Shown here one piece after another: positions 7,436 through 12,255 of a stretch of DNA of 64,000 bases (the stretch's first letter is position 1; the number at the start of each line of letters is the position of its first letter). Under the pieces are notes generated by a model. That model was not told where the DNA came from, made no database searches, and worked only from the letters and a program-made list of their open reading frames with translations. Source of the DNA: Patescibacteria group bacterium (GTDB lineage Bacteria > Patescibacteriota > Patescibacteriia > UBA10025 > JAHIVO01); assembly GCA_049325535.1 (NCBI GenBank), contig JBMOKY010000001.1, positions 93,002 to 157,001 of the forward strand, read 5' to 3'. Made by a program: the position numbers and the translations under genes.

Positions 7436-8182
7436 TTATGCTGCCGACCTGGTGCCGGTGAGCAATTCCCAGTTTGTGCGGGGCTTCTTCGGCGGGATAG
7501 CTTCAGAACCCTTCTGGCACAGGGGGCACTCGTCCAGCGTCCAGCGCGGCATGGGCTGGTCGACGACCGCGACATACTGCTGGCTGCCGAACGCCTTTTC
7601 ACCGGAGCGATTGAAGAAAATCCCGACGAACGGTATCAGTTTCGCGCCGCCGTCAGTGGCCTGTCGCAGGGCTTCATGCTGCGCCCGCAGGGTAGTCGCC
7701 TCGGTAATTAGTTCCTCCACCTGGAGAACAGTTTCGCCCGGTTTGATGCCGAAGCGCATGAGCTGTTTCATTTTGTCCTTCTCCTCCGTGAAGGCAAAAC
7801 GAGCTCCCAGATGGGCGGCGACTTTTGTTCCGAACGTGATGGCGGCCATCGGTGACGAGAGTACCCAGTCGACGCCGCCGAATGCGATGCCCGCGTCCAG
7901 CAGCTGTTTGGCCAGCTGGGCGGCCATCAGATCCTCCATGCGCGGGTACTCAAAGAACTCGCTGCAGTTGATATACCCGTCGGAGTGCTTGCCGCTGGTG
8001 AGCAGGGCATGCGGTCGTGTCGGGTCACCGGCGTAGTCGAAGTACCAATGGGCATTGGCGATGCCGAGCAGCCGGAGGATTTCCTCGGTGGGGATGAGAA
8101 ACCCTTTGTGGATGGCCTCGAGCTGCAGCCGATGATTGAACAGGCAGAGGTCACGTGGTGTGGCCAGTTGCTGTGTTTCCAT
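7436..8182 (-). CDS. pyrE: type I phosphoribosyltransferase, orotate PRTase-like, with non-canonical PRPP motif VLQVEELITEATT
   Basis: LTSGKHSDGYINC resembles the OPRTase LKSGRKSPYFFNA and the gene sits in the pyr operon. The PRPP loop has EE where the established VLLVDDVITTG motif has DD. The protein also has N- and C-terminal extensions. Confidence 0.55.
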   Translation of the reverse strand: METQQLATPRDLCLFNHRLQLEAIHKGFLIPTEEILRLLGIANAHWYFDYAGDPTRPHALLTSGKHSDGYINCSEFFEYPRMEDLMAAQLAKQLLDAGIAFGGVDWVLSSPMAAITFGTKVAAHLGARFAFTEEKDKMKQLMRFGIKPGETVLQVEELITEATTLRAQHEALRQATDGGAKLIPFVGIFFNRSGEKAFGSQQYVAVVDQPMPRWTLDECPLCQKGSEAIPPKKPRTNWELLTGTRSAA

Positions 8183-8203: not shown

Positions 8204-8593
8204 TTATATGCGCAGTTTGTGGTTTACGGTTTGCATGAGATCGTGGAGCGCTTCGGATTCTGTGGGCCGGAAATCAAAGACCATGTCGAGGTGAGCTGCG
8301 TGGATGACGGCCATGACCTGGTCAGATATACAGCAGAGCGTCAATGCTCCACCGACATTTTTGATGCGGATCATGACACTGAGCAGTAGTCCGAGTCCGA
8401 TACTGTCTATATGCTCGATTCCCTCGAGATTCAGGCAGAATCCTCTGATGTTTCGACCCAGGCATTCTGTGATATGGTCACTGAATGATGTTGCTGCTGC
8501 GCTTTTGTCGATGTGGCCAGCCAGCCGGGCGATCTCGATCTGATCATTCCGCGTCACATATGAGACGCGGAAACGTGGCTCAGGTGATGGCAC
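8204..8593 (-). CDS. STAS-domain protein (anti-sigma-factor antagonist, SpoIIAA/RsbV-like)
   Basis: The 129-aa protein has the conserved IDSIGLG phosphorylatable-serine motif typical of SpoIIAA-type STAS domains. Confidence 0.7.
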   Translation of the reverse strand: MPSPEPRFRVSYVTRNDQIEIARLAGHIDKSAAATSFSDHITECLGRNIRGFCLNLEGIEHIDSIGLGLLLSVMIRIKNVGGALTLCCISDQVMAVIHAAHLDMVFDFRPTESEALHDLMQTVNHKLRI

Positions 8594-8610: not shown

Positions 8611-9468
8611 CTAGGCTGTGGCGCGCAGCTCGTTCAATTCATCATTGGTTTTCTGCGCCTCGGCCTTGGCCGCCTGCGCCCAGTCGGCCTCCCGCGAGGC
8701 GTAAAGTACACTGCGGGAAACGTTGACCACGGCCAGCCCGCCATTATTGGCAGCGATGATTGCCGCGGCTTCGCCACCCTGGGTTTTCAGTCCCGGGATG
8801 AGCAGCGGGATGTCCGGTCCGACCGCCGCCCTGATTTCAGCCAGCTGAGCGGGCTTGGTCGCGCCGACCACCAGGCCATAGTTGCCACTGGCGCCGAAAG
8901 CACCGGTTGACTGGATGGCCACGTGCATATACACGGGCATAATCGGCTGATCAGCGCTCACTGCCGGCTGTACCGGGAGGGACTGGTAGTCGGCACTGCC
9001 CGGATTTGACGTGAGGCAGAGGCCGAAGACGCCCAGATGCAGGTCGAAAAACGGCTGAGCCGTTTCATTGCCCATGTAGGGGTTCCAGGTGACCGCGTCG
9101 CCACCGATTCCGTACAGGGCGGCTGCGTACTGCTCGGCGGTGTTGCCGATGTCGTTCCGTTTCCCGTCGAGGATGATGACGTGGTTTGGGCAGATCTGCC
9201 GGATGTACCGGACCGTCCGCTCCAGGGCTTTCCATCCTTTCCGGCCCTGGCTTTCGTAAAAAGCCAGGTTCGGTTTCCAGCCGCAGCAGCGCTCGGCAGT
9301 GACCTCGACGATGGTGCGGTTGAATTTTTCGATGGCGGCATCGGGGCTGATGTGGAAGAGCTCGGTGATTTCGCCGGGGACTTTCTTTTCGTCGAAATCC
9401 AGGCCGACGATCATCATGCTGCCCGAAATTTCCTGGGCATGCTTCAGTTTTTCCACAAAGGTTTGCAT
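8611..9468 (-). CDS. pyrF: orotidine 5'-phosphate decarboxylase (type 2, long form)
   Basis: The 285-aa protein has motifs VGLDF, KPNLAFYE and ILDGKRNDIGNT, characteristic of OMP decarboxylase. Confidence 0.85.
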   Translation of the reverse strand: MQTFVEKLKHAQEISGSMMIVGLDFDEKKVPGEITELFHISPDAAIEKFNRTIVEVTAERCCGWKPNLAFYESQGRKGWKALERTVRYIRQICPNHVIILDGKRNDIGNTAEQYAAALYGIGGDAVTWNPYMGNETAQPFFDLHLGVFGLCLTSNPGSADYQSLPVQPAVSADQPIMPVYMHVAIQSTGAFGASGNYGLVVGATKPAQLAEIRAAVGPDIPLLIPGLKTQGGEAAAIIAANNGGLAVVNVSRSVLYASREADWAQAAKAEAQKTNDELNELRATA

Positions 9469-9565
9469 GTTTTACCTCCATGCGGTGAATAGGTTGTGAT
9501 GAGAACGGTTTCTCTGGTTTATTTTGGTTTCCCCCTACCTTAGCATCAGTCAGGTGGCTGGTCAA

Positions 9566-9596
9566 TAAAAAGCGCGCCCGCAGAGCGGGGCGCGCG
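9566..9596 (-). terminator. GC-rich hairpin terminator (GCGCGCCCCGC...GCGGGCGCGC followed by TTTTT on the minus strand)
   Basis: It lies between the small gene 9635-9841 and pyrF. On the plus strand it is preceded by an A-run, so it may be bidirectional. Confidence 0.55.
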
Positions 9597-9634
9597 TAGG
9601 GCTGGTTTGGGTGTCGGCAGAACCGACGATCGCG

Positions 9635-9841
9635 TCAGGTGGTCAGGCGGCTGACGTTGACTATTCTCAGCGCGGGGTCGCACTCGACTACCTGGAATTT
9701 CCAGCTACTCGGCAGAGCATGGTTCTCGCCGGAGAAACGGAAGTCCATTTCGACTGTCTCGCCGGCATCAGGCCAGCGGTCTGAGCTGCAGTATCCGAGC
9801 TCGTGTTCGGTATTTCCGTCCACCAGGACGATTTTGTACAT
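9635..9841 (-). CDS. small hypothetical protein (68 aa)
   Basis: ATG at 9841 is preceded by GGAGG 10 nt upstream; the product begins MYKIVLVDGNTEHELGYC... and a terminator follows. No recognisable family. Confidence 0.45.
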   Translation of the reverse strand: MYKIVLVDGNTEHELGYCSSDRWPDAGETVEMDFRFSGENHALPSSWKFQVVECDPALRIVNVSRLTT

Positions 9842-9999
9842 GATCACGACGAACCTCCGTGGGTGATGGTTATGCGATGGAGAATGTATTTTTATTTTTC
9901 TGACCGTAACACAGACCCTTGAGCCCGTCAAATAAAATAAGAGGGGCGGGTCTTTCGGTGACCAGCCCCTGACAAGAGCAAAATCGGTGAGTGGCAGAA

Positions 10000-10398
10000 T
10001 TACTTTATCTGCCCGAGTACGCGCCGGTTTTCCGGGCGCGGCGGCCGCGGCCAGGTCCTCGGTGTGCGTTGGGCGGCGCCGGCGGATTGGTGGGCCGGGG
10101 CAAAAACCTTCCAGCCGGTCGGATTTACGATCAGCGTTTCGCTGCCGACGCGGAACGGTTTGACGCCGTACTCCTTGCCCGGGTGGGCGACATTGGTCCG
10201 CATCCGTTCGTGCTCCAGGGTGTGGACCCGGATGGTAAACGACCGATTGGGGTCATGCGGATGCTGGATGACCAGCGCGTTTCGGGTACCGAAGGGATGC
10301 TCGGTTACCTCGATGCCGATGATGATGTCGTGCTCGTCATGCGCGGGGTAGGTAGCGAAAACGTTTCCGACGGGCACGAGTTTTTCATCGTGAGCCAT
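10000..10398 (-). CDS. uncharacterized small protein, tandem paralog 1 of 3 (132 aa)
   Basis: ATG is preceded by AGGAGGTGTC (SD to ATG spacing 6 nt). The N-terminus MAHDEKLVPVGNVF...IRVHTLEHERMRTNVAHPG aligns with paralogs 2 and 3. A hairpin plus T-run terminator lies near 9975-10000. Confidence 0.6.
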   Translation of the reverse strand: MAHDEKLVPVGNVFATYPAHDEHDIIIGIEVTEHPFGTRNALVIQHPHDPNRSFTIRVHTLEHERMRTNVAHPGKEYGVKPFRVGSETLIVNPTGWKVFAPAHQSAGAAQRTPRTWPRPPRPENRRVLGQIK

Positions 10399-10465
10399 GG
10401 GACACCTCCTGTGTGGTTGTTGGTTTTTTTGACGTTCTGTTTGTGGGGACTTTTGATTTCCGTTT

Positions 10466-10493
10466 ACTCTATCATGGAAATGTTTGTTGTCAA
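10466..10493 (-). promoter_or_regulatory. sigma70-type promoter of paralog 1 (TTGACA, 16 nt spacer, TAGAGT)
   Basis: Minus strand TTGACA (10493-10488) and TAGAGT (10471-10466). The whole promoter and 5' UTR block is duplicated upstream of paralog 2. Confidence 0.55.
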
Positions 10494-10591
10494 ATCATGT
10501 CGGCGGAATTGTATGAGCGCGACACAAAAAAGAACGCGTCAGTTGAGGTTGCTGACGCGTTTTCATTGGTTGGTACGGCCAGGATGGCCGT

Positions 10592-10993
10592 TTACTGGGT
10601 GGTGAAGTGGTCGGACGACCGTCTGGAGGCGGCGAGCTCAAGGTCGCGGAATTTGGGAGGGCGGGGTGAGATCACCTGTTCAGCGGTCTCAGCAGCATCG
10701 GCGTGATGCTTGTCGACGAACACAAGGGTTGATTCATCGACGGCGAAATCGTCGGGGAGCGGGTGCGCCGTTTTTATGGCGCAACTGTTGCCGGGTTTGG
10801 CCACGTTTGTCCGGTTGCGGTTGATCTCGATGGTCGAAACCTTTACCGTAATGTGCCGTTCTCCATTGGCCAGCACCAGCTCTTCATGCGGCACGAATCC
10901 ATGGCTTCCCACATTGATCCCGAAATACGGACCGTATTTGCCCGGAAAGACCCGGAATACGTGGCCGACGGGAACAAGATTTCCATTGGCCAT
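10592..10993 (-). CDS. uncharacterized small protein, tandem paralog 2 of 3 (133 aa)
   Basis: The product begins MANGNLVPVGHVF...VKVSTIEINRNRTNVAKPG. The SD and ATG context is identical to paralog 1 (GACACCTCCTGTGT on the plus strand). Confidence 0.6.
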   Translation of the reverse strand: MANGNLVPVGHVFRVFPGKYGPYFGINVGSHGFVPHEELVLANGERHITVKVSTIEINRNRTNVAKPGNSCAIKTAHPLPDDFAVDESTLVFVDKHHADAAETAEQVISPRPPKFRDLELAASRRSSDHFTTQ

Positions 10994-11056
10994 ACGACAC
11001 CTCCTGTGTTGGATTGTGATTGGTGTGCTATTTCTAGCGGGGTTTATTTGCCGTTT

Positions 11057-11084
11057 ACTTTATCATGGGGACATGCGCTGTCAA
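11057..11084 (-). promoter_or_regulatory. sigma70-type promoter of paralog 2 (TTGACA, 16 nt spacer, TAAAGT)
   Basis: Near-identical to the paralog 1 promoter block: plus-strand CCGTTTACT(C/T)TATCATGG...TGTCAAAT. Confidence 0.55.
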
Positions 11085-11185
11085 ATGTATTGTGAGTGGT
11101 ATATCGACCACGTATCGACCGCCGTGAAATAAAAAAGGCGTATCAACGAGGGGCGTTGATACGCCGAAGCGATCGGCAGGACTGC

Positions 11186-11476
11186 TCAGGCACGGAAGAT
11201 GAGCATGCCGTGGTGGAACTCGGCGGCGTCCTGGACCTGGATGGAGCATTTTTCTCCGCGGTTGACCCTCTTGCGGGGCCGCCGGTTTACCTGGATCGAA
11301 GACGCGGTGACGGTCTGGTCAGTATGTGTCCGCCGTCCACTCTCGAAGAGCAGCGTCTGGCCCTGCTCTACCCGATGCCGGACGCGCACGCCGACACAGT
11401 TGAGTTCGTGGAAAATTCTGATAACCTTCCCCACCTCGGACCGTATCCGCGTCGTATCAGATTGATTACCAGCCAT
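11186..11476 (-). CDS. uncharacterized small protein, diverged tandem paralog 3 of 3 (96 aa)
   Basis: VGKVIRIF...SSIQVNRRPRKRVNRGEKCSIQ aligns with paralog 2 VGHVFRVF...STIEINRNRTNVAKPGNSCAIK. The SD is AGGAGGTACG before the ATG. Confidence 0.5.
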   Translation of the reverse strand: MAGNQSDTTRIRSEVGKVIRIFHELNCVGVRVRHRVEQGQTLLFESGRRTHTDQTVTASSIQVNRRPRKRVNRGEKCSIQVQDAAEFHHGMLIFRA

Positions 11477-11490
11477 CGTACCTCCTGGAA

Positions 11491-11532
11491 AATTTTTTGG
11501 TATTTAAAAACAACGGTTTCGCAACAACCGTA
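11491..11532 (-). terminator. hairpin (ACGGTT/AACCGT) followed by a T-run on the minus strand; candidate rnc terminator or attenuator in the paralog-3 5' UTR
   Basis: The minus strand reads ACGGTTGTTGCGAAACCGT followed by TGTTTTTAAATACCAAAAAATTTT, located between the rnc stop and the paralog-3 SD. Confidence 0.4.
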
Positions 11533-11565
11533 CGCTTTTACTGGTAGGGCGTCAAGTCCAGGTAG

Positions 11566-12255
11566 TTACCAACCCTTCGCCGCGAGCGCATTCTCCGCCG
11601 CGGCTACTTGTGCTTCCTGTTTTGACGTCCCCTCGCCTTGGGCGATCATCTCCCCGCCGAGATAGACACCGATCACGAATTTTTTCGCGTGATCCGGGCC
11701 GCTTTCTTCCAGCACGGTGTAGTGCGGGGTGATACCCATGCGATCCTGACTGGCCTCCTGAAAGCGGCTCTTCGGGTCGATATAGAGTTTATGTTTCAGG
11801 ATATCGTCGAGCCGGGACAGGACGTGGTCAGCGATAAATTGCTTGGCAACGTCCCAGCCTTGGTCGAGATAGATAGCGCCGATGATAGCCTCGAACGCAT
11901 TGGCCAGAATGTAGGAACGGGCCTTGGCATTTGCGTCTTTTGCCTCGCCTCGTGACAGGTGGAGGTATTCGTAGATGTGGAATGTTTCGGCAATATCCGA
12001 AAGCGTTTTGGCATTGACCATGGCGGCCCGCCAGTTGGTCAGCTCGCCTTCCGGATTATCAAAATGAAGGTAGAGGTATTCGGTGACCACGAGCTCCAAT
12101 ACGGCATCGCCCAGGAATTCCAGACGCTCATTGTGCCCCAGCGGAAAATTCCGGTTTTCATTAAGAAACGACCGGTGCACCAGCGCCTGTCGGAGGATAT
12201 CCTTATTGATGAATGTTATCTTGAGGGACTGTTCAAGTGATGTGGAGTCATGCAT
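11566..12255 (-). CDS. rnc: ribonuclease III
   Basis: The RNase III signature ERLEFLGDAVLELVVTEYLY is followed by a C-terminal dsRBD; 229 aa. Confidence 0.9.
   Translation of the reverse strand: MHDSTSLEQSLKITFINKDILRQALVHRSFLNENRNFPLGHNERLEFLGDAVLELVVTEYLYLHFDNPEGELTNWRAAMVNAKTLSDIAETFHIYEYLHLSRGEAKDANAKARSYILANAFEAIIGAIYLDQGWDVAKQFIADHVLSRLDDILKHKLYIDPKSRFQEASQDRMGITPHYTVLEESGPDHAKKFVIGVYLGGEMIAQGEGTSKQEAQVAAAENALAAKGW

Follow-up and report, generated by a model that had tools for sequence, protein, structure and literature searches.

Stand-alone EF-Tu-domain-II-like barrel proteins in Patescibacteria: a rare two-form family, predicted from sequence and structural models, encoded beside rnc

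In eIF5B, a β-barrel is followed by C-terminal helices, and it is the barrel that binds the acceptor end of the initiator tRNA. Pbp11 is the sole characterised stand-alone example of the EF-Tu-domain-II-like fold; the Pyrococcus abyssi protein (Q9UZY3, Protein Data Bank (PDB) entry 7ANU) binds tRNA in vitro, for which a terminal extension outside the barrel is required (PMC9540759). We describe here three adjacent genes, termed c1, c2 and c3, in a 64-kb stretch of a Patescibacteria genome (contig JBMOKY010000001.1; this whole stretch is referred to as the window), which are predicted to encode barrels of this type. The descriptive part of our account, that is, the fold class, the family, the old paralogy, the pairing of a short with a long gene and the separate transcription units, is held with high confidence. 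The full proposal, that these old paralogs of a rare family use an EF-Tu-domain-II fold to bind tRNA or rRNA as accessories of translation or ribosome biogenesis, is built on analogy and is put forward tentatively, with slightly less than an even chance of being right as a whole.

The three genes follow one another on the minus strand as c3 (11186-11476, the short form, 96 aa), c2 (10592-10993, a long form, 133 aa) and c1 (10000-10398, a long form, 132 aa), flanked by rnc (11566-12255) and pyrF (8611-9468) on the same strand; each call combines an open reading frame (ORF) with homology. Coordinates and lengths agree with those of the original prediction, which had been made from the sequence alone, and the N-terminal and core motifs that it quoted are found as written. 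For c3, the conserved residues S/K-E-V-G-K-V-I-R precede the GTG start given in the database, and we therefore favour the ATG at 11476. The original prediction had regarded the genes as paralogs of an uncharacterised protein, and this is borne out both by a formal alignment test set beforehand and by the lack of any curated family that covers them. BLASTP aligns c1 with c2 at an E-value of 4e-14 (33% identity) and c2 with c3 at 3e-4 (about 29% identity locally); the pairwise alignment of c1 with c3 is not significant, and c3 is joined to the others via profiles. A long-form profile of 33 relatives, which takes in c2 and a one-residue variant of c1 and leaves out c3, matches c3 at an E-value of 6e-10 among the 872 ORF segments of the window, while the short-form profile matches c2 at 1e-9 and c1 at 3e-6 in the same set. 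Neither profile finds a further family member in the 64 kb. Compared with each other, the two profiles match with 99.2% probability and an E-value of 7.5e-20. Judged by sequence, then, c1, c2 and c3 are all homologs, and the window holds exactly three of them.

Structures were modelled with AlphaFold2 from the family alignments and are predicted, not experimental. The c2 model (predicted local distance difference test score (pLDDT) 89.2) consists of a β-barrel followed by a helix (residues 95-103), a strand (108-110) and a second helix (115-128), and the c3 model (pLDDT 87.3) is a bare barrel without a C-terminal extension. A Foldseek search of the PDB with c2 retrieves only translation-factor barrels, namely IF2, mitochondrial IF2, aIF2-gamma, EF-Tu domain II and eIF5B, together with the stand-alone proteins Pbp11 (7ANU) and 1XE1; the template modelling (TM) scores of 0.50-0.57 are normalised to the full 133 aa, tail included. 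The c3 model retrieves EF-Tu domain II and the C-terminal domain of U32 peptidases with TM scores of 0.72-0.76 over 88-90 columns. The Foldseek probability for the assignment is 1.00, and both proteins are, as modelled, six-stranded closed β-barrels of the EF-Tu-domain-II ('translation protein') type and belong to that superfamily. The loose likeness to small β-barrels remarked upon in the original prediction has thus become a defined fold class for both models. At the level of sequence, hmmsearch places eIF5B domain IV in the PDB at a marginal 1.2e-3 for the long form and 4.9e-3 for the short form, over 55-70 residues, so that both E-values lie within 1e-3 to 1e-2. Sub-threshold matches to GTP_EFTU_D2 are seen in 3 of 33 long-form and 2 of 7 short-form relatives (best E-values 3e-4 and 1e-3, respectively), and a few relatives match GTP_EFTU_D4 below threshold; the three window proteins themselves give no match to GTP_EFTU_D2 (PF03144), even at E-values up to 10.

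Pfam, NCBIfam, PADLOC and PHROGs return nothing usable for the window proteins, and relatives are few. Among 5.8 billion proteins we recovered 16 of the long form and 9 of the short form, the named ones all being 'hypothetical protein' from metagenome-assembled genomes (MAGs) of Patescibacteria or Candidatus Kerfeldbacteria. When 1.84 billion cluster representatives were searched exhaustively with a hidden Markov model, no more than 31 matched (E <= 0.001). Their lengths are 98-142 aa, apart from the two weakest: P0035 is a fragment of 67 aa, and P0041, at 204 aa, matches in two stretches. The family members examined are stand-alone proteins of 98-142 aa, and none has a multidomain GTPase architecture. 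An alignment of the c1 type finds two loci only among the GTDB representative genomes. The c2 protein is identical to one from a 1.15-Mb Patescibacteria contig (P0001), and c1 is 99% identical to P0002 and 70% identical to a Kerfeldbacteria protein (P0004); ortholog identity is 69-74% for c1 and about 50-56% for c2. Short forms, of about 100 aa, are the barrel alone. Long forms, of about 130 aa, carry an N-terminal MA..G.LVPVG.VF motif and a core (S/T)(I/L)E..R.R(T)NV..PG motif; beyond the barrel they have a conserved Ala-containing helix, an edge strand and, after it, an RPP(R/K)F-like motif (RPPKF in c2) whose Arg-Pro is invariant, and their tail is usually basic. The C-terminal tails had been thought to differ from copy to copy; those of c1 and c2 in fact share the helix, the strand and the invariant Arg-Pro, and c3 alone is tailless. 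Conservation is spread across barrel and tail with no hypervariable segment. A neighbour-joining tree splits a c1 clade (window c1, P0003-P0007 and P0011; signature 'VHTLEHERxRTNVAxPGKxYGVKP') from a c2 clade (window c2 and P0008-P0010, with P0013, P0014 and P0018 just outside; signature 'VSSIEIxRxR...CAIK'). By these comparisons, c1 and c2 are old paralogs belonging to two clades, not recent duplicates, and the family as a whole is a rare, two-form one, found in Patescibacteria wherever the source names the organism and not covered by curated libraries.

Ten distinct genomes, the window included, were compared at this locus, and the window is the only one with all three genes. Genes c3 and c1 occur together in Kerfeldbacteria locus L001, where c3 directly follows rnc, in L013, where c3 is separated from rnc by a gene for a DUF5666-like secreted protein, and in L016, where a Peptidase_M50 gene separates c3 from c1; L007 has c3 and a c1-like gene with a small helix-turn-helix gene between them, and its pyr gene is on the opposite strand. 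In L016 and L007, too, c3 comes after rnc. In L006 and L015 a c3-like gene and c2 are 51 nt apart with no promoter between them, which points to an operon. L003 retains c2 only, and L009 and L011 have one long form each, that of L009 lying between mnmA and csrA/rpsB/tsf. A short gene is thus paired with a long one in seven of the ten genomes, with long forms alone in the other three, and the locus lies between gyrA-rpmF-nusB-rnc and pyrimidine genes in eight, the exceptions being L009 and L011. Each locus holds one to three family genes, so the copy number does vary among relatives, a point that the original prediction had asked about. L003 and L013 are close relatives, whose rnc proteins are 91% and whose DUF5666 proteins are 82% identical, yet which hold c2 only and c3 plus c1, respectively, at the same spot. 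Such a contrast fits differential loss from a three-gene ancestor, and the similar leader blocks described below might, from their sequence, have allowed the losses by recombination.

Each of the three window genes is, as far as sequence signals tell, its own transcription unit, with promoter and terminator on the minus strand. The predicted c3 promoter (TTGACG-N17-TACGGT, 11527-11555, from a pattern scan) lies just downstream of the rnc stop codon, and TTGACC...TACGGT stands at the orthologous position in L001. Those of c2 (TTGACA-16-TAAAGT, 11057-11084) and c1 (TTGACA-16-TAGAGT, 10466-10493) are consensus matches with a TG extension. The original prediction of separate promoters quoted these last two correctly and overlooked that of c3. 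Intrinsic terminators are predicted after c3 (12-bp stem and T-run, 11127-11165, -24.6 kcal/mol, z -5.97) and c2 (10-bp perfect stem and T-run, 10524-10570, -28.7 kcal/mol, z -4.49), and c1 is followed by a probable one, a GGGGCUGGUC...GACCCGCCCC hairpin and then a U-rich tract (9942-9970, -18.4 kcal/mol, z -2.23), which a strict terminator scan misses. An Rfam scan of the window at gathering thresholds and an E-value scan of 9400-11650 yielded only tRNAs elsewhere and one sub-threshold match, to suhB, which is the c2 terminator hairpin. We also considered a promoter block peculiar to the array and rejected it, as the same type, TTGAC-N17-(TG)nTAnnGT, precedes c3, the small ORF at 9635-9847, pyrF and about 12 other window sites.

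Between promoter and start codon, c1 and c2 share a distinctive leader. Both leaders (c2, 10994-11056; c1, 10399-10465; minus strand) are A/C-rich and end in ACAC-AGGAGG-UGUC; the c2 leader is unstructured (folding z -0.43), that of c1 is less structured than its shuffles (z +1.92), and a leader profile matches them at E-values of 1e-8 and 1.2e-8, respectively. A riboswitch-like leader was accordingly rejected, since neither leader shows significant folding. The Shine-Dalgarno sequence of the c2 leader, AGGAGGUG, is 8 nt long, and these 8 nt are the complement of the canonical anti-Shine-Dalgarno sequence; GGAGGTGT occurs in the 64 kb at c1 and c2 only. The blocks from the -35 element to the ATG (about 100 nt) had been described as almost identical. 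They are indeed related, being 70% identical against 0.546 +/- 0.033 in shuffles, none of which exceeds 0.64, but near-identity is confined to three identical islands joined by A/C-rich, merely similar sequence. A profile built from six leaders of the c1/c2 type finds an independent seventh, in L016 (E-value 3e-4), and nothing else beyond the known leaders in 162 kb; the pyrF leaders are not matched. The ACA...UGU flanks are kept in L001, L003, L013 and L009 and are absent from c3, pyrF and other leaders, and ACA-n-GGAGG-UGU is conserved at c1/c2-type genes in six genomes; the leaders of L003 c2 and of the L013 family genes are 79% identical. Leader identity of 60-79% against 33% protein identity between the paralogs implies selection on the RNA or DNA itself. 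The sequence suggests that the ACA-GGAGG-UGU leader could be a translational operator, which hints at post-transcriptional control; this could be autoregulation or the work of a CsrA-type repressor. The element resembles the SELEX consensus for CsrA, RUACARGGAUGU, and csrA adjoins the family member in L009. No csrA was found in the window, which covers about 5% of the genome, and among the loci examined it was present only in L009/L010.

Further observations concern the genes and signals around the locus. The window pyrF leader (9470-9565, minus strand) is loosely of the same promoter and leader design and has 63% overall identity with the c2 leader. The c2 leader also has a stretch of about 40 nt, AAATAAAC..GCTAGAAATAGC..ATCACAAT.CAAC, in common with the L001 pyrF leader (L001 6440-6556), with 68% identity over the block, and these sequence similarities suggest that promoter-leader blocks have been copied between genes at the locus. 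The promoter consensus of the genome appears to be TTGAC(A)-N17-(TG)GTAnnGT, with about 19 sites in the window (e.g., 5681, 24884, 33075, 44458, 47221 and 54089); G is common at position 5 of the -10 hexamer (e.g., TAGGGT, TACGGT and TAAGGT), and leaders of about 50-60 nt follow wherever a Shine-Dalgarno sequence and start codon are identifiable downstream. Directly downstream of c1 lies a fourth small-gene cassette, an orphan ORF of about 70 aa (9635-9847, minus strand, MIMYKIVLVDGNTEHELGY...) with a promoter TTGAC-N17-TACGGT at 9931-9903, GGAGG 6 nt before its GTG start and a GC-rich terminator at 9595-9572; it matches nothing in Pfam, NCBIfam, PADLOC or PHROG, and none of the related loci has an equivalent. 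Between pyrF and a pyrE-like gene (7436-8182) lies a gene for a small STAS-like (anti-sigma-antagonist-like) protein (8204-8593), both on the minus strand. L016 likewise has a STAS gene (Pfam STAS) after pyrF, and in L013 a similar ORF of 120 aa and then a pyrE-like ORF follow pyrF; the STAS-like gene is an unusual, conserved insertion in the pyrimidine gene cluster. In L003 (4731-5867) and L013 (3190-4329), the space between rnc and the family genes holds a gene for a secreted, signal-peptide-bearing protein of about 378 aa, which is absent from the window; a faint DUF5666 Pfam match comes from L003 only. L006 (5000-5389) and L015 (3910-4553) have a gap of about 640 nt after rnc, occupied in L006 by a 129-aa ORF unlike the family. 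The L013 contig (CAZVMV010000011.1) is titled 'uncultured Gammaproteobacteria bacterium'; its order of rnc - DUF5666 - c3 - c1 - pyrF - STAS - pyrE-like is that of the Patescibacteria contigs, and because its rnc is also 91% identical to that of L003, the label looks wrong.

How might these proteins act? We propose that the barrels would bind RNA in the manner of EF-Tu domain II, IF2-C2/eIF5B domain IV and Pbp11, the tRNA acceptor end or an rRNA element being the likely target, and that, present in abundance, they would assist translation or ribosome biogenesis. By its sequence signals, each gene is of a monocistronic, high-expression design, with a consensus promoter, a leader of about 60 nt that is unstructured and A/C-rich, an 8-nt Shine-Dalgarno sequence and an intrinsic terminator, and the short and long proteins could possibly form a heterodimer. 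The case for this role combines the analogy of fold and the example of Pbp11 with the genes that lie nearby (rpmF-nusB-rnc and rpsB-tsf), the very strong signals for expression and the basic character of most long forms, which have a median isoelectric point (pI) of 9.4, 21 of 33 lying above 9; c1 itself has a predicted pI of 9.85 and a basic, Arg/Pro-rich tail (...GAAQRTPRTWPRPPR...). Several points weigh against the proposal. The functional step draws on fold analogy and neighbourhood, and the fold is also found in non-translation proteins. All sequence links to translation factors are marginal, at E-values of about 1e-3, and when hhalign was used to compare the family profiles with one sequence, EF-Tu domain II of E. 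coli, the result was not significant. Translation-gene neighbours are weak evidence, as Patescibacteria genomes are dense in translation genes; the rnc-pyr synteny may be explained by shared descent alone, and the L011 member lies among msrA/msrB and unrelated genes. Nor is a basic character shared by c2, with a predicted pI of 6.7, or by half of the short forms. The promoters and terminators are consensus predictions. A bolder version of the idea, which we consider distinctly unlikely, is that a short and a long barrel together form a GTPase-less two-barrel module, comparable to EF-Tu II+III or IF2 C1+C2. The module would either take hold of (aminoacyl-)tRNA at its acceptor end or attach to the ribosome as a component peculiar to the lineage, and the proteins would control their own synthesis through the ACA-GGAGG-UGU leader. 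If true, this would be a previously unseen translation accessory system limited to a small branch of the Patescibacteria.

The original prediction saw in the locus a tandemly amplified array maintained for dosage or diversification, as might suit a variable surface, defence or immunity function. Tandem genes on one strand, each with promoter and terminator, a copy number that varies from one to three and the different subtypes found at the same spot in close relatives (rnc 91% identical) would all be in keeping with this. The copies are nevertheless at most 33% identical and fall into old, separately conserved clades, their orthologs are 50-74% identical with motifs and tail conserved, and a comparison of c1 with its Kerfeldbacteria ortholog counts 29, 27 and 65 substitutions at codon positions 1, 2 and 3 of the minus-strand frame, a third-position excess that indicates purifying selection on the coding sequence. 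What recurs in other genomes is a pair, short with long, instead of an array of near-copies of variable length; it sits within a conserved housekeeping neighbourhood, has no PADLOC or PHROG matches and no hypervariable segment, and its promoter type is general to the genome. We consider the array largely refuted and, as an explanation, very unlikely. The same codon-position excess bears on whether coding might instead lie on the plus strand, with the antisense ORFs there (9991-10605, 10710-11132 and 11096-11665) as the real genes and those of the minus strand as spurious. Long antisense ORFs are present in the window and also in L001, but those of the window match no family, neither in a library scan nor with the family profiles, and bring up no homologs, whereas the minus-strand proteins have homologs of the same length in many genomes and confident predicted folds, and the Shine-Dalgarno, promoter and terminator signals are all oriented with them. 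These tests, which the original prediction had itself named, confirm the minus strand as the coding one and have already refuted the converse, to which we give practically no chance. A two-gene toxin-antitoxin or defence module could account for two small adjacent genes that recur as a pair, and we rate it as extremely improbable: the partners are homologous to each other, each has its own promoter and terminator in most genomes, the position within core genes is fixed, long forms are solitary in three genomes, and here again PADLOC and PHROG are silent. The family is neither a defence system nor a diversity-generating array.

Two further readings stay closer to the neighbouring genes. The proteins could act in or regulate pyrimidine biosynthesis, given that pyrF or pyrB follows family genes in eight genomes and that the c2 leader resembles pyrF leaders: it has about 40 nt in common with the one in L001 and is 63% identical overall to the one in the window. 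The leader profile, however, misses the pyrF leaders, the distant members in L009 and L011 have no pyr genes nearby, the pyr gene of L007 is on the opposite strand, and nothing known ties the fold to nucleotide metabolism; we regard such a role as quite improbable. A close variant of RNA binding, unlikely in our view, is that the proteins are lineage-specific ribosomal proteins or assembly factors, for example offsetting missing barrel factors such as RimM, rather than free tRNA binders. The same barrel superfamily also takes in the N-terminal domain of RimM and ribosomal protein L35Ae. The genes adjoin rpmF, nusB and rnc, with their roles in rRNA transcription and processing, the expression signals predicted from sequence are very strong, and the basic Arg/Pro-rich tail of the c1 type is like the extensions of ribosomal proteins. 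Furthermore, rimM, rimP, rsfS and yjgA are nearly absent from the Candidate Phyla Radiation (CPR) (PMC12641178). Against this, 31 clusters are far too few for the family to serve the CPR at large, and neither RimM nor L35Ae structures appear in the top 50 fold matches.

The machinery for translation and ribosome biogenesis is reduced in Patescibacteria, and most of the small proteins that they encode lack an annotation. Three 'hypothetical proteins' can now be placed in a defined fold class and in a new two-form family with an Arg-Pro (RPPRF-like) motif and a leader element, whose recurring unit is a short and long gene pair beside rnc and nusB. Should binding to tRNA or the ribosome prove true, the family would be a lineage-specific addition to a reduced translation apparatus; should it not, the family is still a well-delimited target for structural genomics.

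Among known systems, the structure that c3 matches best is that of the U32 'peptidase' C-terminal domain (4HE5/4HE6; Peptidase_U32_C), with TM scores of 0.75-0.88, and one relative gives a weak Pfam match to it. That domain, however, is part of a larger enzyme, and its sequence relationship with the family is not significant. Domain II of EF-Tu, EF-1alpha and aIF2-gamma (GTP_EFTU_D2) has, according to the models, the same fold, and the family spacing (S/T)(I/L)E...12 residues...G matches VE(259)MF...G(271) of EF-Tu, by inspection and a non-significant alignment. The family proteins differ in not being part of a GTPase, and on inspection the other residues of the aminoacyl pocket are not obviously conserved in them. 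IF2 C2/eIF5B domain IV (GTP_EFTU_D4) is the best PDB sequence-profile match for both forms, at marginal E-values, and IF2, mitochondrial IF2 and eIF5B are among the top fold matches of c2; the family barrels stand alone, in contrast, and their C-terminal extension is not sequence-aligned to the eIF5B helices. Pbp11 and its counterpart PF0907 (PDB 1XE1) resemble the family in standing alone, at a length of about 90-110 aa, and in having the same barrel (TM 0.68-0.75, normalised to the target), and the family proteins, as modelled, are likewise small barrels that stand on their own. Both nonetheless come from archaea (Thermococcales) and bind the proteasome, their extension lies at the N-terminus where that of the family is a C-terminal helix/strand/RPPRF, they are not paired as short and long paralogs, and 7ANU and 1XE1 are absent from both profile searches of the PDB at E-values up to 10. 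What is known here is thus the fold class and one characterised structural analogue, Pbp11, and what is new is an unannotated, narrowly distributed family of two forms.

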